From contig DDZT01000018.1 in assembly GCA_002346435.1 (NCBI GenBank), forward strand, positions 61,853 through 114,101: 52,249 nt of DNA, in the 5' to 3' direction. Made by a program: the position numbers and the translations under genes. The stretch is from Anaerolineales bacterium UBA3001 (GTDB lineage: Bacteria; Chloroflexota; Anaerolineae; Anaerolineales; UBA11657). Below the pieces are notes generated by a model. That model did no database searches, had not been told where the DNA came from, and was given only the letters and a program-made list of their open reading frames with translations. This document shows, piece after piece, positions 4,201-35,318 of this stretch (within the stretch, counting starts at the first letter, position 1; each line of letters starts with the position of its first letter).

Positions 4201-4532
4201 AAATAGGAGAAAAGGGTAAACATTTCTTCAAGATACTACGTTACAATTAAACCATATTCCTAAACTATTACATTATATTCATCTAACGATTGTCTTACGA
4301 TTGTCTATCTGTATCAATTGGTACACTCAAAGTATTTGATGGACATTATTGCAATAATTGGATTATATATCTTGCTGACTATAGATTATGATTTGAGTAA
4401 TAATTGTAGAGTTTAGGCATCCGTGCAGTTTATATTTTCTTCATTATTTAGCAAAACTGTGTTATAAAAGTAACGGATAAGTTAGTTTTATATTCATATA
4501 GTGGGCTATACATTGTATTTTTTGTGTAAATT

Positions 4533-5870
4533 ATGAATTTTGACAAGTTCGTTTCAAGTGTTTCACATAATAGAGTCAGTAGACTATCTTGGGCAGCCGG
4601 TCTATCAGGTATTCTAAGCATTTGCTTGTGGTTTAATGCAGTCTATGCTGCTGTAGATTCTGATGATGATGGAATCCCAGATAGTTCGGATAATTGTGTC
4701 TATGTAAGCAACCCAGACCAACGAGATAATGTTACCGCTTTTATATTAGGGCATGGAGACAAATGGAAAACATCATTTGAGCCATTATGGGCTCCTGCTG
4801 ACAAAAGTACTACTCGAGTTTATGTCGGTGGAACAATACAGGTATCAGTAACTGATTACACATGGAGTTCAGATGGCAAAAAAATAGAGTTCACCACTGC
4901 CCCTAAATTGGACGATGAGGTTCGCCTAGTGGTATTAGAAGACAAAGATGGCAGAGGTGATAAATGCTCTCCTGATCTAACAGTAGATTTTGATGGTATA
5001 CCAGATGAGGGTGACAATTGTCCACTTGTTTACAATCCTTACCAGGAAGATACATGGGGTACAAGTGAAGGTGATGCCTGTGAGACGGGTTCAGGAATTT
5101 CTGAAATATATCAGGTTTGGGCAAAAATATATGAGCATTCTAATTATAATGGGATTGAGGAAGTGATTCGAGTGGACGACGTACTGCTAGCTGGAAATGC
5201 AATAGGAGATGATGCTGTATCATCTATTCGCGTGGGACCACATACAGCTGTATATTTGTATACCTTACCCAATTATGGTGGAATTAGCGAGTTTTTTGGC
5301 AATGACGATTCTGACTTTATGGACAATCAAATTGGTCATGACACTGTGTCATCTATTCGTATGTATAGTACTGCGCCTATACGGGCAACAAAGATAGATG
5401 CAGGCATAGATTTTTGGTCAGGAAATAAAGGGCATGTTGGCCACATTTCGACTGCACAATTACAGACCTTAGTGTCAGGCGGATCAGGTAACAGTATTAT
5501 CCTCGAGCATGAGTATGTGGACAGCGTCCAGTCTATCACAGTTACTTATAATGGTTCTGGCGATTATGTTGTGTCCACAACAACTATAGTTGGAACATTA
5601 GATGAGACTTCACATTTTCATTACGAGGGTGTCGCTGACGTTGCTACTACTGTGGTTGTTACAGCTACTCCTACTCCTACTCCTACTCCTACTCCACTAC
5701 CTGCTACTGTTGTAATGGAAGCTTCTGAGAACAAATATATTGTTCAATCAGGTGATTATTTATTTAAAATAGCTGTGCTTCATAATACATCAGTACAATC
5801 CCTTGTACTTGCAAACAATATAGAGAATGCTGATCTTGTTTTCAAAGGACAGGTTTTAATTCTCCCCTAA
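4533..5870 (+). CDS. secreted multidomain protein: two thrombospondin type-3-like Ca-binding repeats, a beta/gamma-crystallin-like domain, a PT linker and a C-terminal LysM
   Basis: Signal peptide: [21 protein letters not shown]3 motifs: [24 protein letters not shown] and [22 protein letters not shown]. Two Greek-key signatures: YEHSNYNG...DDAVSSIRV and LYTLPNYGG...HDTVSSIRM. Linker: [10 protein letters not shown]. LysM: [29 protein letters not shown]...[10 protein letters not shown]. Confidence 0.75.
5667..5696 (+). repeat. in-frame hexanucleotide microsatellite (ACTCCT)x4 plus ACTCCA, encoding the (Thr-Pro)n linker
   Basis: Direct reading gives actcct actcct actcct actcct actcca, in frame with the 4533 CDS. 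Confidence 0.9.
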
Positions 5871-5892: not shown

Positions 5893-6384
5893 TTAGTCGT
5901 GCTTTTGTCCATTTGGTAATGTTGCACCTGTAAGTGTACGGGCGCTTTCAAGCTGATATTCTGTCACCAAAGCACCAGTGAGATTAGCGTCGGCTAAATA
6001 TGCGCCACTTAGGTCAGCACCACGCAGATCTGTGTTGATAAGTTCGGAACTGTTAAGCACAGCGTTTCTAAAAACAGAATTTTGTAGATTGGCTCCAGAC
6101 AGAATAGCATGTCGCATAAATGCTCCTGTGAAATTAGAGTTACTCATATTCGCATCAGTCAATATCGCATATTCGAGATCAGCACCTGCCAAACTAGTTT
6201 CGGGCTTGTTGATTTCGCTTAAATTTATACCTTGCAAATTGCAGCTTATGTTCTTGCCTGTAAGAACTCGAGTAAGGCTGTATATATCAGTATTTCCTAT
6301 GGATGCTATTACCAAATATGATACTAAAACTATTGATACTAAAGCACTGATGAAAACTTTCTCATTTCTTGATCGAGTTGTCAT
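5893..6384 (-). CDS. membrane-anchored pentapeptide-repeat protein
   Basis: 163 aa with an N-terminal TM segment (VFISALVSIVLVSYLVIASIG). It is followed by contiguous A(D/N)LxX pentapeptides: LAGADLEYAILTDANMSNSNFTGAFMRHAILSGANLQNSVFRNAVLNSSELINTDLRGADLSGAYLADANLTGA. Confidence 0.8.
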   Translation of the reverse strand: MTTRSRNEKVFISALVSIVLVSYLVIASIGNTDIYSLTRVLTGKNISCNLQGINLSEINKPETSLAGADLEYAILTDANMSNSNFTGAFMRHAILSGANLQNSVFRNAVLNSSELINTDLRGADLSGAYLADANLTGALVTEYQLESARTLTGATLPNGQKHD

Positions 6385-6473
6385 TAGGCCTCCTTACGTA
6401 ATATACTGTGGCAAAATTTACCGATTTAGAAAGCAAATGGATACTTGGTTGATGTACGTTTCTTACGTTGAAA

Positions 6474-7127
6474 CTAACTCATGCTCCAGGCAATATATAA
6501 AAGGATAATACCTGCTACTCCCATTATCGATGCTAACCAAATCAGCCCAAATGGTTGTTTTGACTTCTGACTAGTTTTTATAATCAGTTGTTCTTTTTGA
6601 AAATATGTTGCCAGATCGGGGGAATCTGTAGATTCAAGACTAGGTTGATCCTGTGCAATATTAGAGTGCTGAGTAATTGTATCTGCTTCAGTTGATTCTT
6701 CAATCTTCTCAACAATCTCTGCTTTATCAATTTCCTGAGTATCTAATTCATCATCTTTAGCACTTTCTTTAGCAATATCTTTGATGTGGCTGTAGTTGTT
6801 CTGTTTGTAACCTAGAGGCTTGTTGTGTTTTTTAGCTTCTATGACCCAAGGGTCTCCAGGCGCCAAGAGTTGTGCTCTTCTAATTGCATCTGAACGTTCT
6901 TTTGAACTTGATGCTAATTCAGCTAGGAATTTCCAAGCAATTAACTTGTTAGGATGTTTTTTGGTAAATGTGCGCAATCCTTCTCTGGCAGCGGTAACAT
7001 CACCAGATTTAGCCAGACTAATAAGTTCATCTAAGTGTTCATCATGCGTATTCACAGAGTAACTATACATGATTGTTCTTGGTATTGCCACATAGCATAA
7101 CATTTCTGGAGTTTCTCTCTGGTACAA
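6474..7127 (-). CDS. hypothetical protein with a TPR-like helical N-terminus, an acidic linker and a C-terminal TM anchor
   Basis: 217-aa ORF. The start is uncertain; Met20 at 7070 is an alternative. The C-terminal hydrophobic segment is FGLIWLASIMGVAGIILLYIAW. I recognise no family signature. Confidence 0.45.
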   Translation of the reverse strand: MYQRETPEMLCYVAIPRTIMYSYSVNTHDEHLDELISLAKSGDVTAAREGLRTFTKKHPNKLIAWKFLAELASSSKERSDAIRRAQLLAPGDPWVIEAKKHNKPLGYKQNNYSHIKDIAKESAKDDELDTQEIDKAEIVEKIEESTEADTITQHSNIAQDQPSLESTDSPDLATYFQKEQLIIKTSQKSKQPFGLIWLASIMGVAGIILLYIAWSMS

Positions 7128-7136
7128 TAGATTTCT

Positions 7137-7472
7137 GTGATTAGTAACTTGCCTAAAGAAATAGCGTCAGAATTGGAATTAGCAGTTGCGGCGCGATCTA
7201 CTGATAACGAAGGAAAAGCGCGTGTGCATGCTCGCAGGGCGGCTGGTTGGGCTATAAGATCATGGTATGTGAGACAAGGTTGTACCAATCGACGGAAGTC
7301 CGCATTTTCTTACTTGCAAGGTGTGTCAAATGATTTATCTATTCCTGGGCACATTCGTGAGGCATCTTCACACCTTATCTTGCGGATTACCGTACATCAT
7401 GAACTGCCGATTGAAAATGATATGTTGGATGATGCTCGGTTGGTAGTTAACTATTTTGTGGACAAAGATTAG
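7137..7472 (+). CDS. hypothetical protein (111 aa, helical, contains an R-x4-H motif)
   Basis: The ORF is divergent from the 6474-7127 gene. I recognise no family. The motif RITVHH is noted. Confidence 0.4.
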   Translation: MISNLPKEIASELELAVAARSTDNEGKARVHARRAAGWAIRSWYVRQGCTNRRKSAFSYLQGVSNDLSIPGHIREASSHLILRITVHHELPIENDMLDDARLVVNYFVDKD

Positions 7473-7522: not shown

Positions 7523-8077
7523 TTGATGACATCAAAGTTTGAGGTTGTTTCCAGTAAATATGTATATCAGGGTAGAGTGGTTCATTTACGTACTGATAAT
7601 GTACGCACTTTTTTAAGTGACAAGACAGTGTGCCGCGAAGTTGTGGAGCATTCAGGTAGTGTTGGTATTGTGGCAATAGATGAAGATGACAATGTGTATT
7701 TAGTGTCCCAGTATAGGCATGCAGTTGACAAGGTGCTAATGGAAATACCAGCAGGCACTCTTGAAAAAGGCGAATCCTCAATTGAGACTGCAAAGCGTGA
7801 ACTTAGGGAAGAGATAGGAATGTCTGCTGATCACTTGATATCTACAGGTAGTTTTTATCTAGCCCCAGGATATTCTTCAGAAATTATGGAAGTCTATATA
7901 GCTAAGGGTCTAAAAGTTGACCCTTTACCTAAAGATGTTGATGAGGATATCGTTGTGCATATGGTCCCGTTTGAAAAATTAGTAGCACAAATATGCTCTG
8001 GTGAATTTACTGATATTAAAACTGTGGCGGCCGTACTACTTGTAGCTCGTAACAATGCATTGCTTGGTTCTAGTTAG
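7523..8077 (+). CDS. NUDIX hydrolase (ADP-ribose pyrophosphatase-like)
   Basis: 184 aa. Nudix box: GTLEKGESSIETAKRELREEIGM (Gx5Ex7REUxEExGU). The overall layout resembles NudF/ADPRase. Confidence 0.85.
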   Translation: MMTSKFEVVSSKYVYQGRVVHLRTDNVRTFLSDKTVCREVVEHSGSVGIVAIDEDDNVYLVSQYRHAVDKVLMEIPAGTLEKGESSIETAKRELREEIGMSADHLISTGSFYLAPGYSSEIMEVYIAKGLKVDPLPKDVDEDIVVHMVPFEKLVAQICSGEFTDIKTVAAVLLVARNNALLGSS

Positions 8078-8220
8078 ATACAGCTTTTGCTCAAGTAACA
8101 CCTGCGGACATCTTGTTGTAGTATGTTGCTAAGTCGACCCTCATGCTATAATCATAATATTGCATTTATCTTAGTGCATAATGTATATATCCTGGTAGCC
8201 TGTTTTTAAAAGTCAATTGA

Positions 8221-11200
8221 ATGTCTTTTGTTCATCTTCATACCCATTCTTCATATTCACTATTAGATGGCCTAAGCAACGTAAGGTCGTTAGCTGCTAA
8301 GGCAAGCGAACTAAATATGCCAGCACTTGCTCTTACTGATCATGGGGCAATGTACGGAGTGGTTGATTTTTTCCATGCATGTAATGAGGTTAATATAAAT
8401 CCAATTTTGGGTATGGAAACTTATATGGCTGCTCGTAACATGAGCGATCGAGAGTCGCAGTATGATGCCAAGAGTTCGCACCTTTTATTGCTTGCTGAGA
8501 ACCAAACTGGCTATCAAAATCTATTGAAGATCGCAACTACATCGCAACTACAGGGTTTTTACCACAAACCTCGTATAGACCATGACTTTTTGTCCTCGCA
8601 TGCTGAAGGCATAATATGTACAACTGGATGCTTGTCAGGGGAAATTCCTAGAGCTTTACTGTCTGGGAATATCAAACGTGCTCACGAACTCATGGATTAT
8701 TATATTCAGGTTTTTGGTACTGAAAGCTTTTTTATAGAGCTGCAAGATCATGACATACCTAGTCTGAACGAGGTAAACAAAGTGCTGTTAGATTTTGGTC
8801 CACAATATGGTCTGAAATTTGTTGCTACTAATGATGTGCACTATGTAGACAATGTAGATGCACAATTGCATGATGTTTTGTTGTGTGTGCAGACTAATGC
8901 TCTTCTTACCGATAAAAAACGTATGCGTATGAATAATGATTCATACTTTTTGCGTTCTCGAGATGAGATGGAGAAGCTTTTCGGACATATTCCTGGAGCC
9001 TTGGATAATACATTGCTTGTAGCAGAGCGTTGCTCTGTTAATCCTTCTACCGATGGTGTACATTTACCAAATTTCGCTGTGCCTGATGGACATGACTATG
9101 CAAGCTATCTTCGCTATTTATGCAACCAAGGTTTAATCGAACGTTATGGCGATTCAGCCTCCGAATCTGTCGTTCAAGATAGGCTTGACATGGAATTGCG
9201 GGTTATTGGTGACATGAATTTTGATGCCTATTTCTTGATAGTTTGGGATCTTTGCAACTTTGCTTCTGAAAAAGGTATTTGGTATAACGCACGTGGTTCC
9301 GCAGCTGGCTCTATTGTTGCCTATGCATTGGGTATTACTCTAGTTTGTCCTTTAGAGCATGGTTTAATCTTTGAACGTTTCCTAAATCCTGGAAGAGCTT
9401 CTATGCCTGATATTGACCTGGATTTTCAGGATGATCGTCGTTATGAGGTATTGGAGTATACATCTAATAAATATGGTGAGGATAGAGTGGCCCAGATTAT
9501 CACCTTTGGCACACTTAAGGCTAGAGCTGCAATTAGAGATGTTGGCCGTGTTATGGATATTCCACTTAGTGATGTTGATCGAGTAGCAAAACTAGTGCCA
9601 AATGTACCTGGTAATCCAGTGAGTATAGGCGGTGCTTTGAAAGATGTGCCGGATTTTATTTCTGTTCATAAGTCTGACACAAAGCTACGGAAAATGATAG
9701 ATCTTGCTCATAGCCTTGAAGGTGTTCATAGAAATGCTGGAACTCATGCTGCAGGAGTGGTGATTGCAGACAAAGCTTTGGTTGAGTATATACCTTTACA
9801 TCGTGCTACGCGAAACAATGCTCAGCAAACTGTTATTCCTTCAACAACTCAATTTGAAATGGAGGTGCTTGATAGCTTAGGGCTTCTAAAGGTAGATTTC
9901 TTAGGTCTTCGTACTTTGACAGTAATGGCACGTGCATGTGAGTTAATTAAGGAAAGGCATGGTGTTGACTACAATTTACGTAATATACCGGTAGACGATT
10001 CAGCAAGCTTCGATTTGTTAGGTCGGGGAGATGTAGCAGGTGTGTTTCAGGTAGAAGGCGCTGGAATACGTCGATTTTTGCGCGAAATGAAACCTACTCG
10101 TTTAGAGCATGTTATTGCAATGGTAGCATTATATCGTCCTGGTCCAATGGATTTTATACCTCATTATATTCGACGAATGCATGGTGAAGAGAAAGTTACA
10201 TATTTGCATCCCTCCTTAGAACCTATCTTTTCGGAAACTTATGGTAGACCGGTTTACCAGGAACAGTTAATGTTTGCTGCAATGGATTTAGCTGGGTATA
10301 CGGCTGAGGAAGCTGATGATTTGCGCAAGGCTGTAGGTAAAAAGATTAGAAACAAACTAATGAAGCATCGAGGTAAGTTCGTTCAAGGTGCAGTCAACAA
10401 TGGGATTCCTGATAGAACAGCAAATGCGATTTTCGATGATTGGGAGGAGTTTGCTCGTTATGGATTTAACAAAGCTCATGCTGCTGATTATGGTGTTATA
10501 TCTGTACAAACAGCCTTTCTGAAGGCTAACTTTCCTTCTGAATACATGACGGCTATGCTGACTGCAGAGAGGGATGATACGGATAAGCTTTCTACTTATG
10601 TCGCTGATGCCCGTCGTATGGGTATAGAGGTGCTTCCTCCAGATGTAAATGATAGTGAACTTGACTTTCATGTGCAGGAATCTAATGATGGCAAAAACGC
10701 AGTGCGTTTTGGGCTAGGTGCAGTTAAAAACGTAGGTGAAGGAGCAGTCATAGAAATATTGAGAGCACGTTCCGAGTATGGTGTTTTCAGTGACCTCGAC
10801 GAGTTTTGTACACATGTAGATCTCAGAAAAGTAGGTAAAAGAGCATTAGACAGTTTGGTGAAAGTTGGCGCACTTGATATGTTCGAAGATAGAAGTAAAT
10901 TGCTTGGATCAATTGAACAATTGGTAGGTGTTAGTAGTGCTATTCATAAAGCTAAAGAAGTTGGCCAAATTAGCATGTTCGACATGATTCCTGATGATGT
11001 TGGCACTGCTAAAATTGACTTAGTTGATGATGTAGACGATTTTTCTCAGAAACAATTGCGTAAATGGGAGAAAGATTTGGTGGGAGTCTATATTAGTGAT
11101 CATCCATTGCTGGCAAATATAGCGCAGATTGAAAATATAATAACCGCATATAGCATGGATTTGTCCGACATGGATGGAAAAATAGTTACATTGGCCGGTA

Positions 11201-11969: not shown

Positions 11970-13367
11970 CTAATGCTTGATAGTACTTGACTCTTTTGGT
12001 GGTAATGGGAACTCTACGCATACTTTTGTAGCAGTTAATCCGTCGACTGATAGCACAGTGAACAGTATATTGTCATTGTGTGTATAACGGTCATTTGGTT
12101 GTGGTGGTCGGCCGAGCCACGTCATTAATAAGCCACTGACCGTTTCTACATCTGGAAGATCATCTCGGGAACCTAAATCCACATATTTCTCAAGCATACT
12201 AACTGGACAACTTCCTAAGGTTTCTAGCATTGTAGGGGATGTGATTACTAATGGTTCGGAATACAAATCAAATTCATCGCGCACTTCTCCTACAATCTCT
12301 TCTACTAAATCTTCCAGTGTTACTATGCCAGCAGTACCTCCATATTCATCAAGAGCCACCGCCATGTGAACATGGTTGCGCTTAAAAGCCGACATCATAT
12401 TGGTAATGGGAGTGTGTTCTGGTACGTATGGTGCTGGTCTCATCAGAAGACGTAAGTCAAATAAATTGTGATTATCCGACAATTGTTGGCGTGCTATGTC
12501 TTTCACATGAAGAATTCCAATAATATGGTCAAGATCATTGCGATATACTGGGAAACGACTATAGCGGCTACTAGTAACCTGAGTCATTATTTGGTCTAAT
12601 GGAGTATCATATGAAATGGCTTGAATTCGGTTGCGAGGCGTCATGACTTGATGCACTTTTTGGTCAGCAAATCCGAACACACCTAGTAGCAACTTTTTTT
12701 CATTGTCCTGAAGTTTGCCACCCAACGCACTTTCACTAACGATTTGTGCTAGTTCTCTTGTAGAATGTAAACGAGCATCACTTTCAGGTGGACGTACTTT
12801 TAGTAGACTTAGCAAACTATCTCCTAGAAAATTTAGTCCTGATACTGGTAAGTACAGAAATTTCTGAGCCCAATACATTGTACTCATTATTGTTAAAGAA
12901 GAACGTTTAGGATTGCTAAGTGCTAATGATTTGGGAATCATTTCTCCTAATACTACGTGCATGTAGGTTAATAAAGCAAGTGAAATCAGCATTGCTATGG
13001 AATGTATAACAATATCGTTGAGCGATGTTCCAGTAAATTTATTTATATAAGGCTCGATGAAATGCGCAATGCGTGGCTCGGCATACATGCCAAGACCTAG
13101 GGACGCCAAAGTAATGCCCAATTGGGCAGTTGCTATGTATCTGTTTGTAGCATTTGGGGATTGAAGAATTTCCAAAACTAGCCTTGCGCGTTTGTTTCCT
13201 GCCTTTGCTAGTGGTTCTACTTGAGTAGGCCGCACTCCAATGATTGCGAATTCTGCTGCTACGAACAGACCATTTATCAGAACGAGCAATGTCGTGACTA
13301 GTATTGGCAATATAAGGCTGGTGGGCTCTGCTGAAATTCCTAAGGAGTAAAATGAATGCTGTGTCAT
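11970..13367 (-). CDS. CNNM/HlyC/CorC-family transporter (DUF21 + CBS pair + CorC_HlyC)
   Basis: 465 aa. The DUF21 N-terminus is LVLINGLFVAAEFAIIGVRPTQVE...GEMIPKSLAL. A CBS pair (VMTPRNRIQ..., FPVY...IIGILHVKDI) and the C-terminal segment LEDLVEEIVGEVRDEFD follow. Confidence 0.88.
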   Translation of the reverse strand: MTQHSFYSLGISAEPTSLILPILVTTLLVLINGLFVAAEFAIIGVRPTQVEPLAKAGNKRARLVLEILQSPNATNRYIATAQLGITLASLGLGMYAEPRIAHFIEPYINKFTGTSLNDIVIHSIAMLISLALLTYMHVVLGEMIPKSLALSNPKRSSLTIMSTMYWAQKFLYLPVSGLNFLGDSLLSLLKVRPPESDARLHSTRELAQIVSESALGGKLQDNEKKLLLGVFGFADQKVHQVMTPRNRIQAISYDTPLDQIMTQVTSSRYSRFPVYRNDLDHIIGILHVKDIARQQLSDNHNLFDLRLLMRPAPYVPEHTPITNMMSAFKRNHVHMAVALDEYGGTAGIVTLEDLVEEIVGEVRDEFDLYSEPLVITSPTMLETLGSCPVSMLEKYVDLGSRDDLPDVETVSGLLMTWLGRPPQPNDRYTHNDNILFTVLSVDGLTATKVCVEFPLPPKESSTIKH

Positions 13368-14695
13368 GTCTGGTTTTCCGCAGTATTCATTATGTGAGCA
13401 GCATCAGAAATGGAAACAGAAAGTTTTGTGATCTTTGTGCCTTCCATATCTTCCACTCGTATTTTGATTGTAGATGGTTTTACTATAATTTCATCACCAA
13501 TTTTTGGTGATTGGACCACTTGTTTATGAACTAAGCTACCGATTGTGCCGGATGGCATGGTTGGTAGATGGACGCCCAAGTACTCATTGACATCTGAGAT
13601 GAGCATGTCAGCATGTAATGCTATTCTATTTGCAGAATCTGCTGAAATATTGATGGTCTCTATATCAAATTCGTCCTGAAGTTCGCCAAACACCTCTTCA
13701 AGGAGGTCTTCATATGTGATAATGCCAGTGATTTGCTCATTCATATCTAAAACGATGGATATGTACTGTCGTTTTGCTGCAAGGGTTTCCCATATATCTG
13801 CAGCTGGTAATGCCTCATTGATGAATATGATTTTACGCAATATTGTTGTGATATCCTCATTGCCTTGCCAATACATTCGCAGCAAATCTTTGATATGCAG
13901 GAATCCTATTATGTTTTCTGTGTTGTCACTATATATTGGGATTCTACTGAAGCCTGACTCAGTGAATATCGGTAGTAATTTAGAGACAGGCATTGTGTCA
14001 GGCGCCGACATTAAAAGATGACGAGGCGTCATAATATGTTTTGCAGTGAGATTACGTAATCGTAATGTATTTCTAAGCATCAAATATGCGCCAGACGTCA
14101 GTATTCCAGCATCTTTACTGTCAGCTGCTAATAGTTGTATTTCTGGAAGAGTATGTGCTGTACTGTGTCGATTATCGGTATCCAACCGCAGTGTTTTAAG
14201 GAGTAGTTTCCCACTACCATTAAATATCCATATCAGAGGTTGGAATATACGTAGTGACCATCGCATAGGTATCAGAGTTGCTATAGATACTTTCTCTGGA
14301 TATTGGAGAGCGATGGATTTAGGCAGTAATTCACCAAGTATCATTTGTAGTCCTGTTAGCACTATCAAAGTGGTTGTTATAGATAATGAATGTGCAGTTG
14401 GTCCTGCAAGTGAACCTAATTTATATAATAATGGCTCGATTCGTACTGCCAAAATATTTTGTCCATAAGCACCTAAAAGTAGTGAGGTTGCAGTAATTCC
14501 AACCTGACAGGCAGCAACATAACGATCGAGACGATTAATGTCATTAATGATTGGTAGTAATTGTCGCGCTAGTATATTTCCGTCTTTAGCAATTTGGTTT
14601 ATGCGAGTACGTCTAGCGCTTACTGTAGCAAATTCTGCTGCAACATATAGAGCATTAATTAATACTAGCAGTGTAATAGTTAGAACAGTTATCAA
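13364..14695 (-). CDS. CNNM/HlyC/CorC-family transporter, tandem paralog
   Basis: 443 aa with the same architecture: LVLINALYVAAEFATVSARRTRI, GELLPKSIAL, IMTPRHLL, IPIY...IIGFLHIKDL, YEDLLEEVFGELQDEFD. It has a 4-nt ATGA overlap with the downstream paralog. Confidence 0.88.
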   Translation of the reverse strand: MITVLTITLLVLINALYVAAEFATVSARRTRINQIAKDGNILARQLLPIINDINRLDRYVAACQVGITATSLLLGAYGQNILAVRIEPLLYKLGSLAGPTAHSLSITTTLIVLTGLQMILGELLPKSIALQYPEKVSIATLIPMRWSLRIFQPLIWIFNGSGKLLLKTLRLDTDNRHSTAHTLPEIQLLAADSKDAGILTSGAYLMLRNTLRLRNLTAKHIMTPRHLLMSAPDTMPVSKLLPIFTESGFSRIPIYSDNTENIIGFLHIKDLLRMYWQGNEDITTILRKIIFINEALPAADIWETLAAKRQYISIVLDMNEQITGIITYEDLLEEVFGELQDEFDIETINISADSANRIALHADMLISDVNEYLGVHLPTMPSGTIGSLVHKQVVQSPKIGDEIIVKPSTIKIRVEDMEGTKITKLSVSISDAAHIMNTAENQT

Positions 14696-14972: not shown

Positions 14973-16415
14973 ATGTATGTTGGCATTAATTGTCTCGAAG
15001 TCCTTTTGATTTCGTGTTACGAGCTTGGTCATCAACCCTTCAGCCTTGCTTCACCATTAAGATTCTTGCGCGATGGTGGAATAAATGCTTCCGGCATAGA
15101 TTTGGCTGTGGAAAATATTAATGATTACGAAGAACACATCAAATCTGCCCGTTTAGTATTGGTGTCAGTCCGAATGCACAATGCATTGAGATTGGGTGTG
15201 GCAGCGTCTAAACGTATTCGTGCATTAAATCCTCAGACCCACATTTGTTTTTACGGAGATTATGCTGGTTTAAACTCTGACTACTTGTGTAAAGAACAGT
15301 ATGCAGATAGTACTATCTCTGGTGAGTTTGAGACCACAATAGTTGAATTGGCCAGAGCTGTTATCGATGATTCCTTTCAAAGTAATGGGCCTCCGTTAGG
15401 AGTTAGTACTTTGCATAGTATGGCTAAACCTGTACTACAGAGGACATCATTTTTGGTGCCTGCACGTGCTGATTTACCCGCTTTTGATAGTTATGCTCGT
15501 TTTAGAGATGATAAGGGTCAATTGCATCTGGCTGGTAGTACGGAGACTACTAGAGGATGCAAATACGTGTGCCGGCATTGTCCGGTAACATCTGTATATC
15601 ATGGCAAGTTTTTTGTGGTCCCTGAGGATATTGTGATTGCTGATATTCGTAATCAGGTTGCTCAGGGAGTGCGACATATAAGTTTTAGCGATCCTGATTT
15701 TCTCAATGGTCCAGGCCACGCGCGGAGAGTTGTGACTGCTATGCATTCTGAGTTTCCAGAAATTACATTCGATTTTACTGCTAGAATCCCTCATCTTTTA
15801 AAATATAGACATTTGTTGTCGGAGATGAAAAGTACTGGATGTGCGTTTGTTATTTCTGCTATGGAGACACTCAATGACGATGTACTGGAGGTGCTTGATA
15901 AAGGTCATACTAAAGCAGACATAATACAAGTGCTCGGTATAATGAAGAAAGCTCAAATACCTTGGCGTCCATCTCTACTTCCGTTTACTCCATGGGCAAC
16001 ATTAGATGATTATCTAGATTTACTTGATTTTGTGCGGAACCATGATTTAGTGCAAAATATAGATCCTGTACAATTTAGTCTTAGGTTGTTAATTCCTCCT
16101 GGGTCTGCACTTTTAGAGCAGAATGCAAACGCAGAATGGCTAGGCGATTTAGATGCAGCAAATTTTAGCTATACATGGTCCCATCCTGACATTCGTATGG
16201 AACAATTGTGGTCGCAAATAAATAGGGCTGTTCGAAAGTCACCAAATGAAGATATAGATCATAGCAAAATGTTTTCCGTTATAGAGGGATTAGCATATGC
16301 TATGGTAAGTAAGACTCCTCCATTTACTAGTATAGTATCTCAGAAACGTCCGATACCTGCTGGATTGACTGAGAGTTGGTTCTGTTGAGCAGAACCTATA
16401 AGCGAGTCAGTCTGA
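14973..16415 (+). CDS. B12-binding-domain radical SAM protein with a CUAEP tail; the in-frame TGA at 16386-16388 is read as selenocysteine
   Basis: The radical SAM cluster motif is C-K-Y-V-C-R-H-C (Cx3Cx2C). The track ORF stops at ...LTESWFC-TGA, but the following codons are GCA GAA CCT = A-E-P, giving C-U-A-E-P-I-S-E-S-V-stop (TGA at 16413-16415). A hairpin starts 14 nt after the UGA. Confidence 0.78.
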
Positions 16416-16420
16416 CTCGT
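16402..16420 (+). promoter_or_regulatory. candidate bacterial SECIS hairpin
   Basis: (G)CGAGTC-AGTCT-GACTCG(T): a 6-bp perfect stem plus a closing G-U pair, with the 5-nt loop AGUCU. The apical loop begins 23 nt after the U of the UGA and has G at its second position. Confidence 0.5.
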
Positions 16421-16727
16421 CTAGTTTGGTTGTAGGTGTTTGCTGCAATATGTCAGCTAAAGCAGCGACATGTTCAGCAAACGCTTGATGTCCTAAGGCA
16501 GTGGTTTCAATATAAGTGCGTGGTTTACGAGATAAGAATGTTTTCTGGATAGAGATGAAACCTTCATCTTCAAGTTTACGTAAATGTGCTCCAAGATTAC
16601 CTGATGTGACTTGAAGAATTTTTTGGAGGTGAGTGAACCCTATCTGTGTTTCACCGTCTAAGGATGTTACTAAAGACATTATTTGCAGACGAATTGGTTG
16701 ATGAATTACTAAATTGAGTTCGCTCAT
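16407..16727 (-). CDS. winged-helix transcriptional regulator (ArsR/MarR-like, HTH_34-type)
   Basis: 106 aa: IHQPIRLQIMSLV....IGFTHLQKILQVTSGNLGAHLRKLEDEGFISIQKTF..RKPRTYIETTALGHQAF.EHV. Confidence 0.8.
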   Translation of the reverse strand: MSELNLVIHQPIRLQIMSLVTSLDGETQIGFTHLQKILQVTSGNLGAHLRKLEDEGFISIQKTFLSRKPRTYIETTALGHQAFAEHVAALADILQQTPTTKLDESD

Positions 16728-22861: not shown

Positions 22862-23287
22862 ATGTCTGACAATCCTATTCGTATTCTTATTGCAAAGCCT
22901 GGTCTAGATGGTCATGATAGAGGCGCCAAGATTATTGCTCGAGCATTGCGCGATGCAGGTTTGGAAGTAATTTACACAGGCCTCAGGCAGTCTCCTATGA
23001 TGATTGTTGAAGCAGCTATGCAGGAGGATGTTAAGGCGATTGGTGTTTCCATTCTTTCTGGTGCGCATCAAGTATTGGTTCCGCGCATAATTAATCTGCT
23101 ACATGAAAAGGGTTTGGGCCATGTACCATTGCTTGTCGGTGGAATAATTCCTGAAAATGATGTTGATGAATTATTCCAGTTGGGAGTAGCTGGTGTATTT
23201 GGTCCAGGTACGAGCACATCAGATATAGTATCACTGGTGCAAGACGTGGTTTCCTCCAACAAGAACAAAATCAATTATTCAGCATAA
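22862..23287 (+). CDS. methylmalonyl-CoA mutase family, stand-alone cobalamin-binding small subunit
   Basis: 141 aa: [39 protein letters not shown], including the DxHxxG B12-binding motif, then ...GVSILSGAH...GGIIP. Confidence 0.88.
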
Positions 23288-23288
23288 C

Positions 23289-24311
23289 ATGTCTTTGACA
23301 AAACAAATAATATCTGGTGACCGGAGGGCATTAGCTCAGGCACTAACGCTCATTGAAAATGATGACCACAGCAGTCAACACATTCTTACTGATGTATATA
23401 GGCATACAGGTTGCGCTCATCTTATTGGTATAACAGGTATTCCGGGTGTAGGCAAATCAACCCTCATAAATTCTTTGGCTAAATTGATGCGAAAATCTGG
23501 TGATAAGCTAGGATTACTGGCAATTGACCCTAGTAGTCAGTTCAGTCAAGGCGCTATTCTAGGTGATCGTATCCGCATGAAAGATTTGTTGGGTGATGAA
23601 GGCATCTTCATAAGGAGTATGGCTAGCCGAGGTGTTCTTGGAGGTCTTTCGTCTACAACAGCAGCTGCGGTTGACCTTCTTGATGCTGCTGGTTTTGATC
23701 GAGTAATTGTTGAAACAGTTGGTGTAGGTCAGTCAGAAGTTGATATTGCCTCTAATGCACAGACTTCAATTGTAGTACTTTGCCCAGGTTTAGGTGATTC
23801 GATTCAAGCCGCTAAATCTGGTATTCTAGAGATAGCCGATATCATAGTTATAAACAAATCCGATTATCCTGAAGTAAATCTTACCAAGAGTTATTTGCGT
23901 GAGATGATTGATATTGGTAGTGCAGCTCAAACTAGTGGTTCAGAGACACAAAATATCATTGATGATATAAATGAAAAGTTAGACACAGACAGTAGTATAT
24001 GGGAAGTACCTATAATTACTACTGTTGCTACTACCGGAGAAGGTATAGGTGATTTGTTTGAGCAGTTGTTAGCTCATTATGAGCATATCAAATCTACTGG
24101 GGAGATTATTAGACGGCGTCATAGCCGGCTGCGTGCAATATTTGAGTCACAGTTGCGCAAACAATTGTATACTAAGTTATCGCAGATGTTGTCTGAGGAT
24201 TACTGTCTTAGACAATTAGAAGTGATTATGGAAAGAGAAACTGATCCATATACAGCAGCTACAAATTGTATCAAACATTTCGAGACAAATTATATCGGTG
24301 ATGAGGATTGA
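23289..24311 (+). CDS. meaB: methylmalonyl-CoA mutase-associated GTPase MeaB/ArgK
   Basis: 340 aa with the P-loop GITGIPGVGKSTLI, then AIDPSS..S.GAILGDRIRM, VETVGVGQSE and INKSD. Confidence 0.88.
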   Translation: MSLTKQIISGDRRALAQALTLIENDDHSSQHILTDVYRHTGCAHLIGITGIPGVGKSTLINSLAKLMRKSGDKLGLLAIDPSSQFSQGAILGDRIRMKDLLGDEGIFIRSMASRGVLGGLSSTTAAAVDLLDAAGFDRVIVETVGVGQSEVDIASNAQTSIVVLCPGLGDSIQAAKSGILEIADIIVINKSDYPEVNLTKSYLREMIDIGSAAQTSGSETQNIIDDINEKLDTDSSIWEVPIITTVATTGEGIGDLFEQLLAHYEHIKSTGEIIRRRHSRLRAIFESQLRKQLYTKLSQMLSEDYCLRQLEVIMERETDPYTAATNCIKHFETNYIGDED

Positions 24312-30642: not shown

Positions 30643-31695
30643 TTATAATGAGTCGTCTTCAATCCAGATAGAAGCATCTGAAGGCAGCTCCAATTTTATT
30701 TTTGTGCCTACTTTTGGTATGAGCGATGGAGTTGGTACTTCAAATTTAAGCTGTAATTCATTTGAGACTATTATCTTCAAATCTACTAGTGCACCTCGAA
30801 ATGATATACCAGCTAATATACCTGACAATGTGCCATGTTCAGACAATTGTGCTCCTCGTGGTCGAACAAGTATCCGCGGATTTTTCATATGTTTAGGTGG
30901 TGGTTGAGACACCGGTATCAAGCTTTTTTCCGAAATTCTCACTCCGTTGCTCTTATCAACAGATACTATAGACTTTTCTAAAATATTAGTTAGTCCAAGG
31001 AAACGCGCTACAAATGTAGACACTGGATGTTCATAAATATCCCTAGGACGACCTATTTGTATTAGTTGCCCGGCATTCATTATCGCTACACGATCGGCTA
31101 TTGCAAAAGCTTCATCTTGGTCATGAGTGACATATATAACAGTTTGTTCAAGCTTAGTAAGTATTTGACGTAATTCATGCAACAGTTGCTCGCGCAAATT
31201 GCGGTCAAGTGAACCTAGTGGTTCATCTAGCATTAGTAATCTTGGCTTTGGTGCAATTGTACGTGCAAGTGCTACTCGTTGTTGTTCTCCACCAGAAAGA
31301 CTTAGTACATCTCTATTAGCTAAGTCTTTCATTCCAACCATATTCAGAATTGCAGACACTTGTTTATCAATTGCTGCTGGATCCAGACGTAGCTGTTTTA
31401 ATCCGAATGCTACATTACCATATACATTTCGGTGGGGAAATAGGGCATTATCTTGGAACATCAGACCGAAATTACGTAGATGTGGTGGTACGCTTGTTAG
31501 TGAGATACCATTCCATCGTATCATACCCGTGTCAGGTATCGTCAGACCGGCCACTATACTCAGTAGTGTAGATTTACCACAGCCACTTGGTCCTAATATT
31601 GAAATAATCTCCCCTTTTGCTACCGAGAATGATATTTGGTTCAAAGCTTCCATACTCTCGTAAGATTTTGAGATATCAATTATTTCTAGCATCAA
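30643..31695 (-). CDS. thiQ: ABC transporter ATP-binding protein (thiamine/iron(III)-type importer, ThiQ/FbpC-like)
   Basis: 350 aa with Walker A GPSGCGKST, the signature LSGGEQQRVALAR, Walker B LLMLDEP and a C-terminal TOBE-like domain. It is the last gene of the riboswitch-controlled operon. Confidence 0.88.
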   Translation of the reverse strand: MMLEIIDISKSYESMEALNQISFSVAKGEIISILGPSGCGKSTLLSIVAGLTIPDTGMIRWNGISLTSVPPHLRNFGLMFQDNALFPHRNVYGNVAFGLKQLRLDPAAIDKQVSAILNMVGMKDLANRDVLSLSGGEQQRVALARTIAPKPRLLMLDEPLGSLDRNLREQLLHELRQILTKLEQTVIYVTHDQDEAFAIADRVAIMNAGQLIQIGRPRDIYEHPVSTFVARFLGLTNILEKSIVSVDKSNGVRISEKSLIPVSQPPPKHMKNPRILVRPRGAQLSEHGTLSGILAGISFRGALVDLKIIVSNELQLKFEVPTPSLIPKVGTKIKLELPSDASIWIEDDSL

Positions 31696-31708
31696 CTACA
31701 CCTTATGA

Positions 31709-33460
31709 TTAGAATTCTGATATTGCGTTTGGCCGAATTGCTTCTATACAAAATATGCTTGTTCCACAAAAGATCATTAGAATTGTGCTTAAGGCCATAG
31801 CTTGACCATAATTTAGAGCGCCGGGTAGCGAAAGGTAGCGATATATCGCCATCGGTACTGTAGTAAATTCAGGACGTGATAGAAGTATCGTTGCTCCAAA
31901 TTCGCCTATTGAAATTGTAAATGCAAAAGCTCCAGCTACTAGTATGGCACGACCAATGATTGGCAGGTCTATTTCGCGCCAAATCTGTATTGGGTTGGCA
32001 CCTAGCATAGCAGCGGCTTTTCGTAGTTGCGGATTGATGATTGTCCATGATGGAAGCAGGCTACGTATTACAAAAGGAAAAGCTACTAGCGTGTGAGCTA
32101 ATGGTACCAGTAATGAAGATGTACGCATATTAAATGGGGTGCGACTAAATACTAGTAATAATCCGAGTCCTAAAGTTACTGCCGATGTTCCTAATGGAAG
32201 CATTAGTATAGGTTCTAACAACTGTGTTAGTCTAGTTTTGCGCGTTAGCATCCATGTTGCAGGCAGTCCTATTGCCAGAGCACTTAGCGTGGTAATCACT
32301 GCATTTCTAAATGAAAATAAGATTGTTTCAATTGGAGTGACGAAGAAGATTGAATTTCTTCTGTTGACAAAAAGTTCATGATAATAGTTGAGTGTGAAAC
32401 CTGTACTTATATTTTCGCGTTCTCCGCGATCAGGTTCGAACTTGTATACAGAACTGAAAGCCAAAGTTATCAGAGGCACTACCAATACGATAATTAGTAT
32501 TGTAATCACGATAACAATAGATATGCGCTTTTTCCAATTAAGCTGTTGTCTTCTAATTGATGGCAAGCGATTAGTTTGCAAAGGTCGGTGTGTTTTTCGA
32601 GAAAGACGCGCGTACAATATAGTTAATCCTAATGTGCATATGAGTTGTATCACAGATAACAAGGCTGCCATCTCCAAGTCAAAGAAATTGATTGTTTGAC
32701 GATAAATTGCTACTTCGAGTGTTGAGAATATAGGCCCTCCTAGTATAAGTATTACACCAAAAGAAGTGAAATTAAATATGAATACCAAGAGAGCAGCTGA
32801 AACAATTGCTGGTGTTAGAAGTGGCAAAGTTATACCTAAAAACGCTCTAAATTGGGTAGCGCCGAGACATCGAGCAGCTTTAATCATTTTTGGGTCCATG
32901 AGAGTCCAGTAATCACCAACCAGTCGTAGTATGATAGTTGTGTTATAGAAGACATGTGCTATTAGTATTGCCCATAGGGTGTGATTAAGAATTATTGGTG
33001 CAGTTTCCAAGTCGAGCCAGGTTATTAGAGTTCTATTTATCCACCCATTTGGACCAAGTGTGGATGTGAAACTTGCAGCTACAACAACCGTGGGTAACAC
33101 AAAAGGGATTGCTGTGATAGCCCTAAGAATACTCTTGCCCCAGAAATTGTAGTGTGCTAATAGGTAGGCTCCTGGGAGTCCGATGGCTAGAGTGAGTATT
33201 GTGGAAAGTGTTGCTTGCCACATGGTAAACCACAGAGTCTTAGTAACATAGGGTTGTCTGACAAGTTCCAGGAGTTGCACGAGACTGCGTAGTCCCACGA
33301 GACTTTTGCTGAGAATTGTTGCCAGTGGATAGAAGTAAAATAGAGTTAGGAATGCTAAAGGTACTATCCATAACAGAGCATATTTAGGGTGAAGGTACTT
33401 ACTTGTTTTATTGTTCACATTGATTAATTCAACATTAGCGCACTCCAGGATTTGATCCAA
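31709..33460 (-). CDS. thiP: ABC transporter permease with two fused BPD_transp_1 domains (ThiP/FbpB-like)
   Basis: 583 aa and about 12 TM segments, with duplicated permease modules. The ATG at 33460 overlaps the upstream gene by 37 nt. A GTG at 33418 is an alternative start. Confidence 0.85.
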   Translation of the reverse strand: MDQILECANVELINVNNKTSKYLHPKYALLWIVPLAFLTLFYFYPLATILSKSLVGLRSLVQLLELVRQPYVTKTLWFTMWQATLSTILTLAIGLPGAYLLAHYNFWGKSILRAITAIPFVLPTVVVAASFTSTLGPNGWINRTLITWLDLETAPIILNHTLWAILIAHVFYNTTIILRLVGDYWTLMDPKMIKAARCLGATQFRAFLGITLPLLTPAIVSAALLVFIFNFTSFGVILILGGPIFSTLEVAIYRQTINFFDLEMAALLSVIQLICTLGLTILYARLSRKTHRPLQTNRLPSIRRQQLNWKKRISIVIVITILIIVLVVPLITLAFSSVYKFEPDRGERENISTGFTLNYYHELFVNRRNSIFFVTPIETILFSFRNAVITTLSALAIGLPATWMLTRKTRLTQLLEPILMLPLGTSAVTLGLGLLLVFSRTPFNMRTSSLLVPLAHTLVAFPFVIRSLLPSWTIINPQLRKAAAMLGANPIQIWREIDLPIIGRAILVAGAFAFTISIGEFGATILLSRPEFTTVPMAIYRYLSLPGALNYGQAMALSTILMIFCGTSIFCIEAIRPNAISEF

Positions 33461-34491
33461 TTCTCCCTGTGAGTGTCGATGTCTTCTGGAGATACTATAG
33501 ATGGATTATTGGCTAGTTGTGCATGTTCAATGAATTCCAATGGTAATTCAGCTTCAGTGTTTACAGGAAACATAAACATTTGCATTGGTATATCTTCTTG
33601 GAAAGGTTTGCTGATCATAAAATCAATCCAAGCTTCTGATAGCATACGATTCGAAGTACCATTCAATATTCCTACGAATTCTATTTGTCGAAAGCATGTT
33701 TCATCTGCTACTATGCTGCCAGTCGGTGCTTCTTCAATTGGTTCAGTCGCAAATATGACTTCAGCAGGAGGGCTTGAAGCGTAAGATACAACTAGAGGAT
33801 AATTGCCTTTTCCGCTGCTGCCACTAAATTCAGTGTAGTAAGCAGTTTCCCAGTTTTCCACTATTTTCACGCCATTGTTTTTTAGATCTAACCAATAATC
33901 CAGATATTGCTCTTGACCAAAATGGCCTATAGTTGCCAGAAGAAATGCCAAACCAGGTGAAGAAGCAGCTGGATTTTGTACCACTAGTAGATTGGCATAA
34001 TCAGGGTTTGTTAGACTTTGTAGAGAGTCGGGTATTTCTATGTCATTAGCATTGAAGTATGACTTATCATAGTTTAGACACACGTCCCCATAATTAATCG
34101 GAGTTACACGTTGTTGCGTGTCTAACAAGAATTCCTTTTCTAGATCATATGCATTTGGTGATTCATATTTTTCCAGAATATCGTTATCCAGTGCTCTAGT
34201 TAGTAAGGTGTTGTCAATACCATAGATAACATCCGCTAGTGGTTCACTCTTATTCAGTATTGCTAAATTCACAGTTGTACTTGCATCACCTGAATTCAAT
34301 ATATTTACTTTCACATTGTGCTGTTCCTGAAAACTAGATATTACTTCTTCAGATACTGCAAAAGAATCATGAGTCATTATTGTTAAAGTCAGACTATCTT
34401 GTGGTTCAGATGTTGCATTGTCACATGATGTCAGTGAGAGTATGCTTGTAAATGATGCTAATATAATAATTGTTTTTGATGCTATATTCAT
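33424..34491 (-). CDS. thiB: thiamine-type ABC transporter substrate-binding lipoprotein (ThiB/TbpA-like)
   Basis: 355 aa with the lipobox SLTSC and LTIMTHDSF... The family 1 SBP layout is typical of thiamine/Fe3+ binders. The assignment is supported by the TPP riboswitch and thiN context. Confidence 0.82.
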   Translation of the reverse strand: MNIASKTIIILASFTSILSLTSCDNATSEPQDSLTLTIMTHDSFAVSEEVISSFQEQHNVKVNILNSGDASTTVNLAILNKSEPLADVIYGIDNTLLTRALDNDILEKYESPNAYDLEKEFLLDTQQRVTPINYGDVCLNYDKSYFNANDIEIPDSLQSLTNPDYANLLVVQNPAASSPGLAFLLATIGHFGQEQYLDYWLDLKNNGVKIVENWETAYYTEFSGSSGKGNYPLVVSYASSPPAEVIFATEPIEEAPTGSIVADETCFRQIEFVGILNGTSNRMLSEAWIDFMISKPFQEDIPMQMFMFPVNTEAELPLEFIEHAQLANNPSIVSPEDIDTHRENWIKSWSALMLN

Positions 34492-35147
34492 TTGTTTCTC
34501 CCGATTACTGTACAGATTAATAATCCTTTTTTTATTTTAATTGTTGCTTGTCTTTTAACTAGCTTATTGCTAAGACTGAATGTTGATCCGAAAGTCAGTG
34601 TTTTATCATCTAGTTTGTATTCTAGACCAGAGGCAGTTGCTCCAACAACAGTGTTGCTTAATGGGATGAACGAGATTGTGTCCCCTGGTGTTCCATTGAT
34701 AGAGTATGTATGGCCAGCACGTATAAGACTTATCTCCTGATTATTATCTACTATACGAATGCGCGCCGATTCGAATCTATTATGCGCTAATAGCATTATG
34801 TTTCCCAAAGTATGATCCCATCGTCCTCCGAGTGCAGACAAAACAATCATTTCTTTCACACCTTTTTTTATAGCAAGGGTAATTGCAAGCTCTAAATCAG
34901 TTTCGTTTTTCCGGACCGGATATGTTAATACTTGGGTTCCAAGCGCGATCAATTCGTTGAGTTCGGGCTTTGAAATTGAATCTAAATCACCAATTATTAT
35001 TTGTGGAGTACAACCGGCGTCTAGACAATGTTTGCCCCCTCCATCTGCGGCTATGAGCAGATCTTTTGAGGAGATCATTGAAGTGAGATCTGTCCGGACA
35101 GACTGATTGCTATTAGCAATTATTATGGCTCGTTCAAATTCTGTCAT
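34488..35147 (-). CDS. thiN: thiamine pyrophosphokinase
   Basis: 219 aa with LLIAADGG, IIGDLDS, the KNETDLELA motif and LGGRWDHTLGNI. There is a 4-nt overlap with thiB. Confidence 0.88.
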   Translation of the reverse strand: MTEFERAIIIANSNQSVRTDLTSMISSKDLLIAADGGGKHCLDAGCTPQIIIGDLDSISKPELNELIALGTQVLTYPVRKNETDLELAITLAIKKGVKEMIVLSALGGRWDHTLGNIMLLAHNRFESARIRIVDNNQEISLIRAGHTYSINGTPGDTISFIPLSNTVVGATASGLEYKLDDKTLTFGSTFSLSNKLVKRQATIKIKKGLLICTVIGRNK

Positions 35148-35170: not shown

Positions 35171-35199
35171 ACGCCTCCAAAGTTATGTTTGAGAGGCGT
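35171..35199 (-). terminator. riboswitch expression-platform hairpin / putative intrinsic terminator
   Basis: On the minus strand, ACGCCTC-tcaaacataactttg-GAGGCGT is followed by ATTATTGTTT. It lies between the TPP aptamer and the thiN ATG. Confidence 0.45.
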
Positions 35200-35204
35200 A
35201 TAAA

Positions 35205-35300
35205 AGCGATGCTTCCCTTCGCCGGCATTACCCGAATCAGGTTCTGTGGGTCGCAGGATACCATCTGCCTCTCAGCCTGATCAATCAGACTCCCCAAGTA
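35205..35300 (-). promoter_or_regulatory. TPP (THI-box) riboswitch aptamer
   Basis: The minus strand reads CTTGGGGAGTCTGATTGATCAGGCTGAGAGGCAGATGGTATCCTGCGACCCACAGAACCTGATTCGGGTAATGCCGGCGAAGGGAAGCATCG. It contains the conserved CUGAGA, ACCC..GAACCUGAU..GGUAAUGCC.GCGAAGGGA elements. Confidence 0.88.
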
Positions 35301-35318
35301 TTAGTTATTGTTTGCCGG

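Follow-up and report, generated by a model that had tools for sequence, protein, structure and literature searches.

The stretch of DNA analyzed here, 52,249 nucleotides of contig DDZT01000018.1 (positions 61,853 to 114,101) from Anaerolineales bacterium UBA3001 (Chloroflexota; assembly GCA_002346435.1) and hereafter called the window, carries on its forward strand a gene for a radical S-adenosylmethionine (SAM) protein whose apparent terminal TGA is, judging from comparison with its homologs, almost certainly a selenocysteine (Sec) codon followed by an RNA signal for Sec insertion. The mechanical open reading frame (ORF) at 14973..16388 encodes 471 aa and ends at the first TGA. Both this ORF end at 16386-16388 and the CKYVCRHC motif named in the initial annotation were present, and the read-through codons that it had claimed were confirmed letter by letter in the window sequence: positions 16383-16415 read TGT TGA GCA GAA CCT ATA AGC GAG TCA GTC TGA, or C-U-A-E-P-I-S-E-S-V-stop. 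The full coding sequence (CDS) would then span 14973..16415 (+) and encode 480 aa, with Sec as residue 472 and the TGA at 16413-16415 as the true stop. Its translation includes the CX3CX2C motif C196-K-Y-V-C200-R-H-C203 (15558..15581, +), which ligates the [4Fe-4S] cluster typical of radical SAM enzymes, and runs to a Cys471-Sec472 dyad encoded by TGT TGA (16383..16388, +; putatively recoded UGA at 16386-16388) and a post-Sec tail A-E-P-I-S-E-S-V (16389..16412, +). The A-E-P of this tail is a conserved family motif, and its last five codons mainly encode a hairpin with the features of a bacterial Sec insertion sequence (SECIS).

We evaluated the family membership of the protein with profile hidden Markov models. 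With U entered as C, the read-through product scored 620.1 bits on the NCBIfam model NF040546, 'CUAEP/CCAEP-tail radical SAM (seleno)protein', the curated cutoff of which is 500 bits, so that the assignment to this family in the initial annotation was borne out. The 471-aa ORF product scored 602.9 bits, and the alignment reached model position 464 of 468 with read-through and 457 without it; the read-through is therefore worth 17 bits because its nine extra residues align to the tail of the model. The radical SAM domain was also detected by Pfam (PF04055, 47.7 bits against a cutoff of 29.5), and C196, C200 and C203 were invariant in 60 homologs. Among the best 120 database homologs, most end in ...ESWFC and the remainder read on as CCAEPT.... 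We then took 80 loci from species-representative genomes and read the DNA at the aligned codon, which was TGA in 60, TGT or TGC in 19 and lost at a contig end in one, and never TAA or TAG. An [A/S/T/V]-E-P triplet followed the aligned codon in every locus with sequence beyond it, and the expectation that Sec or Cys would align to the TGA with A-E-P conserved behind it thus holds in the form x-E-P over 79 loci. The CUAEP pentapeptide is not the extreme C-terminus that it had been taken for, in that the proteins of the family continue past it for about 8-35 residues of low conservation and predicted disorder.

Cys was found in all seven determinable Nitrospirota loci and TGA in most Chloroflexota, Acidobacteriota, Planctomycetota, Gemmatimonadota and Methylomirabilota loci, a distribution that fits a codon tracking the Sec-decoding ability of the lineage. 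Thermomicrobium roseum DSM 5159 (NC_011961.1, locus 7935-9371; our locus L090) has TGA at the aligned codon, and a metagenomic strain (L096), 98.5% identical to it over 4.5 kb, reads TGC there while its tail is unchanged and the hairpin is kept, which looks like a very recent switch between Sec and Cys. The window gene resembles NF040546 members such as that of T. roseum (WP_012643191.1) in the order of its domains, in its CX3CX2C motif and its ...ESWFC-U/C-AEP tail, and in the distance at which its SECIS-like hairpin stands.

The hairpin (16402..16420, +) has a core of CGAGTC/AGTCT/GACTCG at 16403-16419, which starts 14 nt past the UGA and pairs 16403-16408 with 16414-16419. The perfect 6-bp stem reported at this position in the initial annotation was confirmed in the sequence, as was a G at the second position of the 5-nt loop (G16410), while the loop distance had to be corrected: the loop base A16409 lies 20 nt from the UGA, or 21 nt if the A-U pair closes the loop, and the 23 nt given before counts from the U of the UGA. 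ViennaRNA extended the stem to eight pairs (16402-16409 with 16413-16420), which leaves GUC as a 3-nt loop starting at G16410; with the A-U pair open, the loop is AGUCU. The minimum free energy was -10.4 kcal/mol (z = -3.7), and none of 200 shuffled sequences folded equally well. The published criteria for bacterial SECIS elements are a loop of 3-9 nt, an upper stem of 4-16 bp, a spacing of 16-37 nt and a minimum free energy of at most -7.5 kcal/mol, with a G among the first two loop positions that is mostly followed by G or U (PMC13188914). The window hairpin conforms to all of these, and its loop A-G-U-C-U corresponds to N1-G-[G/U]-N-N2 (PMC13188914).

A lone hairpin of 6-8 bp is unremarkable in 52 kb, and the significance of this one rests on comparison among homologs. 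We aligned 62 distinct TGA-bearing sequences with MAFFT, fitting the alignment to no structure, and found that the window hairpin coincides with a family-wide hairpin. Paired cells amounted to 87.9% compared with 69.8% after shuffling and cells with both bases changed numbered 91 compared with 35, a level that none of 500 shuffles attained, while sliding the 3' arm as a control lowered the pairing to 17-60%. In the 5' arm, 27 different sequences occupied the inner five positions, and the loops conformed to (A)GU[U/C]N with a nearly invariant G-U (alignment columns 31-32), and the longest stem placed its loop 19-21 nt past the UGA in 53 of the 62 sequences. Of 62 Sec loci, 56 had a stem of 5 bp or more at the hairpin position, compared with just 1 of 18 Cys loci (Fisher 1.6e-11), and the mean folding z was -2.2 in Sec loci and 0.0 in Cys loci of equal G+C content. 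When the family alignment was turned into a covariance model, this model matched only 16380-16434 in the window with 48 bits, where the specificity of the match counts rather than its score because the window sequence was in the alignment. Taken together, the bacterial SECIS geometry claimed for this hairpin agrees with all of the published criteria, and the hairpin covaries and is nearly confined to the TGA forms.

The similarity to the bacterial SECIS consensus (Zhang and Gladyshev, as given in PMC13188914) comprises a stem-loop within the CDS behind the UGA, a 3-5 nt loop with G-U and a stem of 6-8 bp. The predicted window element differs in standing at the very end of its gene, with the true stop in its 3' arm and a convergent gene overlapped. 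We also noticed that the codons for F-C-U-A-E at 16380-16394 are self-complementary (UUCUG/UUGAG/CAGAA), so that a 5-bp mini-hairpin with the UGA in its loop could form. Via G-U pairs, the same would be possible for the family consensus UUCUGCUGAGCGGAR, and the region gave a weak reverse-strand match to the covariance model (10.9 bits). This mini-hairpin may be a by-product of the conserved peptide, and wobble pairing would mask any covariation here.

The convergent gene encodes a winged-helix regulator of the HTH_34 type (16407..16727, -; 106 aa; PF13601, 71.7 bits) that contains no cysteine. Its ORF ends in ...LDESD-stop, and nine nucleotides (16407-16415) are common to it and the extended radical SAM CDS; its last four codons (D-E-S-D) and its stop fall within the hairpin, and the two stops are the symmetric TGA/TCA of the palindrome. 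The initial annotation had described these bases as coding on both strands, and this 9-nt overlap is real in the window but specific to its clade, being missing from the two most distant clade members (L084 and L089, 59% identical), in which the regulator stop lies 3 nt past the radical SAM stop and the hairpin persists. The overlap therefore cannot explain the hairpin, because it is not conserved while the hairpin stays.

The relatives that make up the window clade came from marine metagenomes and metagenome-assembled genomes (MAGs), one of them labelled Anaerolineaceae bacterium. At 59-99% protein identity, all of them keep TGT TGA [G/A]CA GAA CCN, the frame, a stop eight codons after the Sec codon, and the hairpin, and conservation is higher over the 33 nt past the UGA than over the CDS (e.g. 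0.75 vs 0.65 and 0.92 vs 0.80). The clade is at most 59% identical to anything outside of it and differs from other NF040546 members in its post-AEP tail, which consists of only five residues (ISESV-stop vs T-x-x-Q-[L/F]... in the rest), and in the position of the hairpin, which is offset from the reading frame by +1 nt when the other family members are taken as reference. The RNA hairpin itself is the same, and this preservation of the RNA after a 1-nt shift, with a different peptide, indicates selection on the RNA. The gene order of the clade is fixed as CNNM, CNNM, radical SAM gene, HTH_34, prmA, dnaJ, dnaK and grpE, in place of the YggX, Fmt-like, L-amino-acid-ligase (LAL) and DUF169 neighbors of other NF040546 loci. 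The two CNNM/CBS/CorC-type transporter genes stand in tandem with a 4-nt overlap (11970-13367, -; 13364-14695, -), divergent from the radical SAM gene, and this arrangement was kept in every clade member whose contig reaches far enough upstream.

From these comparisons, the best explanation of the locus, to which we assign a probability of about 85%, is a 480-residue NF040546 radical SAM selenoprotein in which the UGA at 16386-16388 is recoded via the SECIS hairpin. In this mechanism, the hairpin 14 nt past the UGA would act as a bacterial SECIS whose apical loop presents G-U, and the loop G-U, 20-21 nt from the UGA, would recruit SelB-GTP-Sec-tRNA(Sec). Sec would enter beside Cys471, translation would run on for eight more codons and it would terminate at the UGA within the 3' arm of the hairpin.

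It is very improbable, by contrast, that the UGA is an ordinary stop behind a protein ending in ...WFC and that the hairpin is the 3' end or terminator of two convergent genes or a coding by-product of the regulator. Such a stop is what gene callers, GenBank (MBS60965.1, 471 aa) and RefSeq (WP_012643191.1 of T. roseum) have annotated, TGA is the normal stop of 13 of the 38 window genes, and the hairpin does sit between convergent genes and overlap the C-terminus of the regulator. Several null results also count against recoding. Neither NCBIfam searches on 20 further ORFs nor tblastn with Escherichia coli SelA, SelB and SelD revealed selA, selB or selD in the window, no tRNA-Sec was found in the window or in 50 homolog loci, and Rfam at permissive E-values returned chance-level matches only for 16340-16480; at gathering thresholds, it reported a thiamine pyrophosphate (TPP) riboswitch and tRNA only in the whole window and no SECIS family. 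The encoding of the regulator C-terminus by the hairpin could moreover add conservation in the subclade with the overlap. On the other hand, an ordinary stop is hard to reconcile with the absence of TAA and TAG from this position in 79 loci and with the 19 Cys loci that read on in-frame through x-E-P, or with the bits that read-through adds to the family score. The hairpin follows the TGA rather than the gene arrangement, and it is kept without the regulator overlap and in phyla with wholly different downstream genes. Since a T run is lacking, the hairpin does not resemble a terminator, and this role was rejected as a consensus scan did not call it. An alternative genetic code with UGA read as Trp or Gly was likewise rejected, since 13 ordinary window genes terminate in TGA (stops of the window ORFs: TAA 15, TGA 13 and TAG 10). 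No convincing read-through candidate was found among these 13 TGA-terminated ORFs.

We next consider the body of the enzyme. The N-terminal B12-like domain proposed in the initial annotation was supported by the fold but not by Pfam, where the B12-binding model PF02310 scored 17.1 bits in the window protein, below its threshold of 32.1. The fold was derived from an AlphaFold2 model of a natural Cys-form homolog (P0043) and not of the window protein. The mean predicted local distance difference test (pLDDT) score of this model was 93, and it remained high to about residue 460 and fell below 50 from residue 466 on (nine residues), just past the C-C dyad; by this measure the tail is predicted to be ordered as far as the dyad and disordered behind AEP. 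Its best structural matches were AprD4, TsrM and OxsB, with MgmA, TokK and CysS also among the best. AprD4 (PDB 6fd2) and the class B enzymes TsrM and OxsB share the same two-domain architecture (template modeling score, TM, 0.67-0.70), but they differ in having only 15-19% sequence identity and no CU tail, and a search of PDB sequences with the window protein gave no match.

The nearest sequence relative by far was ArsL, the enzyme that forms the carbon-arsenic bond of arsinothricin. Its model, NF040542, was the second-best NCBIfam match of the window protein (322.6 bits over positions 1-409 of 423), and the window protein was 35% identical over 416 residues to a Bacillus cereus protein with an RCCLKC tail that itself scored 706 bits on the ArsL model. 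This identity spans the catalytic body (residues 8-416), and the two have in common an N-terminal Rossmann-like domain, a CX3CX2C core and a short chalcogen-rich C-terminal tail. This tail is RCCLKC in ArsL (B. cereus ...FKRCCLKC) and WFC-U-AEP in the window protein, where it stands about 40 residues further from the core. C15 and C92, which are nearly invariant within the CUAEP family and could be further ligands, are missing in the B. cereus protein. ArsL, the only characterized relative of the CUAEP family, is one of two enzymes known to generate a 3-amino-3-carboxypropyl (ACP) radical from SAM. It cleaves SAM to 5'-methylthioadenosine (MTA) and the ACP radical, which is added to As(III) bound by the three Cys of the C-terminal RCCLKC tail, and without the tail SAM cleavage continues while the product is lost (10.1101/2024.02.01.577332; 10.64898/2026.04.29.721666). 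The components listed for its reconstitution are SAM, reductant and As(III), with cobalamin not among them (10.1101/2024.02.01.577332). By analogy with the tail-less ArsL, a failure of Sec insertion in the window gene would give a product without U-AEP that probably cleaves SAM without forming a product.

We then clustered the neighboring ORFs over 86 CUAEP loci. An ATP-grasp protein of the LAL type was a neighbor in 33 loci from six or more phyla, and a YggX/Fe(2+)-trafficking gene stood directly upstream, overlapping the radical SAM start, in 30 loci, mostly of Chloroflexota (e.g. 5648-5983 in L013 and from about 3510 onward in L073). Other recurrent neighbors were an Fmt-like formyltransferase (25 loci), DUF169 proteins (16) and Atg22-type transporters of the major facilitator superfamily (MFS; 7). 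A homologous ATP-grasp gene was also found in the ArsL-family arsenic locus of B. cereus (hmmsearch 3.6e-33). These ligase and exporter neighbors would fit a pathway that makes an unusual amino acid and then ligates it. In a tblastn search with E. coli SelA, SelB and SelD over all of the approximately 95 loci, a single selD was detected, which is too isolated to use. It lies in a Blastocatellia MAG (L020, 3188-4285, -; 357 bits on TIGR00476), divergent from the neighboring L-amino-acid ligase (4337-5671, +) and Cys-form CCAEP radical SAM gene (5947-7401, +), and this linkage may point to selenium as a pathway substrate or may be coincidental.

As to what the dyad does, we tentatively favor, by analogy, an ArsL-like chemistry in which the Cys-Sec tail holds a soft atom for alkylation by a SAM-derived radical. 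The docked C-terminal dyad would hold the atom, a metalloid or chalcogen, beside the cluster-bound SAM, and the SAM-derived radical would then make a carbon-heteroatom bond, giving an unusual amino acid. A more specific version, in which the ACP radical of SAM attacks a chalcogen or metalloid on the dyad and yields a seleno- or metalloid-amino acid of the selenohomocysteine type, appears rather unlikely. In that version the atom could be selenium from selenide or selenophosphate, or the selenium of the enzyme's own Sec, and in many phyla the adjacent L-amino-acid ligase would convert the product to a dipeptide that an Atg22-type or MFS transporter would export. A number of observations speak against the ArsL-like chemistry. 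The score on the ArsL model was below its cutoff of 450, the RCCLKC motif is absent from the window protein (...LTESWFC-U-AEPISESV), and its tail offers two ligands, one of them Se, compared with three Cys in ArsL. Homology to ArsL also does not fix whether an ACP or a 5'-deoxyadenosyl (5'-dA) radical would form. The window clade is without LAL, YggX, Fmt-like and DUF169 neighbors, and neither ars nor other metalloid genes occurred among the recurrent neighbor families of the 86 loci (clusters 9-35 included). Beside the window radical SAM gene itself there were no arsenic genes, the neighbors being two CNNM genes, the Cys-free HTH_34 regulator, prmA and dnaJK, and the regulator would be unable to sense As(III) via cysteine thiolates because it contains no cysteine.

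A serious rival, although a doubtful one, is that the Cys-Sec pair, on a mobile arm at the C-terminus like the GCUG tail of thioredoxin reductase, acts as a redox selenenylsulfide or donates hydrogen atoms, with canonical 5'-dA radical chemistry on an organic substrate and no metalloid. The closest solved fold, AprD4 (TM 0.70), points this way; AprD4 is a canonical 5'-dA radical diol dehydratase with a B12-like domain that is not known to bind cobalamin. Many CUAEP host groups are largely aerobic, YggX, which is linked to oxidative damage and Fe trafficking, is translationally coupled in its 30 loci, and the lack of metalloid genes in any CUAEP neighborhood examined counts in the same direction, as does the fact that most bacterial Sec stands in for redox-active Cys (PMC1794560). 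Against a redox role stand the relationship to ArsL, whose Cys-rich tail binds substrate and is no redox relay, the predicted docking of the dyad without a long flexible arm in the model of the Cys-form homolog, and the ATP-grasp partner common to CUAEP loci and the ArsL-family locus. We consider it improbable that the protein is a class B cobalamin-dependent radical SAM methyltransferase that, in an HgcA-like manner, methylates a metal, metalloid or carbon center held by the dyad. The B12-binding-like N-terminal fold with TsrM, OxsB, MgmA, TokK and CysS among the best structural matches would agree with such an activity, PF02310 is precomputed for many homologs, and Haft has tied CU motifs to HgcA (10.1101/2022.07.06.499078). 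However, PF02310 is sub-threshold in the window protein, the best fold match is not known to contain cobalamin, none was listed for the reconstitution of ArsL, and no cobalamin-specific neighbors were conserved.

The remaining features of the window were recorded alongside. The TPP riboswitch (35197-35306, -; 71.7 bits) lies upstream of an operon (30643-35147, -) for thiamine diphosphokinase and a thiamine-type ATP-binding cassette transporter. At 22862-24311 (+), a gene for a small free-standing B12-binding-domain protein (about 131-141 aa) precedes one for a MeaB-type G-protein chaperone, with no mutase large subunit alongside, and the pair is kept in relatives. The gene at 4533-5870 (+) encodes a protein with thrombospondin type-3 repeats and LysM domains; its product was rejected as a selenoprotein because the 'Omp28-related selenoprotein' model gave 44 bits against a cutoff of 200 and matched residues 151-220 only.

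Adjacent Cys-Sec pairs near the C-terminus are likewise present in thioredoxin reductase (GCUG), the SAO system, HgcA and MerT variants, all of unrelated fold and cofactors, whereas here the dyad is joined to a radical SAM core. CU motifs are rare in selenoproteins and associated with heavy-metal chemistry, and the CUAEP family has been named in passing as an uncharacterized CU selenoprotein (Haft, 10.1101/2022.07.06.499078). This was the one relevant mention of CUAEP/CCAEP that we found in the literature, and a 2026 review of prokaryotic selenoproteins does not include the family in its table. The RefSeq CDS of T. roseum stops at the TGA despite carrying the CUAEP family name, and the catalytic-looking Cys-Sec dyad is missing from deposited proteins because gene callers, GenBank and RefSeq end the CDS at the UGA.

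The window gene is thus a further member of a named, biochemically uncharacterized family, in a marine Chloroflexota lineage. What is added here is the demonstration of a SECIS at the family level, the frame-shifted SECIS of the window clade and a quantified relationship to ArsL. The arrangement in the window would be unusually compact, with the SECIS, the true stop and the end of the convergent gene all within the same 19 bases. Should the dyad carry a chalcogen or metalloid for the ACP radical, the family would make carbon-selenium or carbon-metalloid bonds by a new enzymatic route, and a natural-product family that is widespread but unrecognized would exist in soil and marine bacteria. The radical SAM selenoprotein family is widespread, extending over Chloroflexota, Acidobacteriota, Planctomycetota, Gemmatimonadota, Methylomirabilota and Nitrospirota, and the handles gained on it are a family-specific SECIS consensus, natural Sec/Cys pairs and a conserved partnership with an L-amino-acid ligase.

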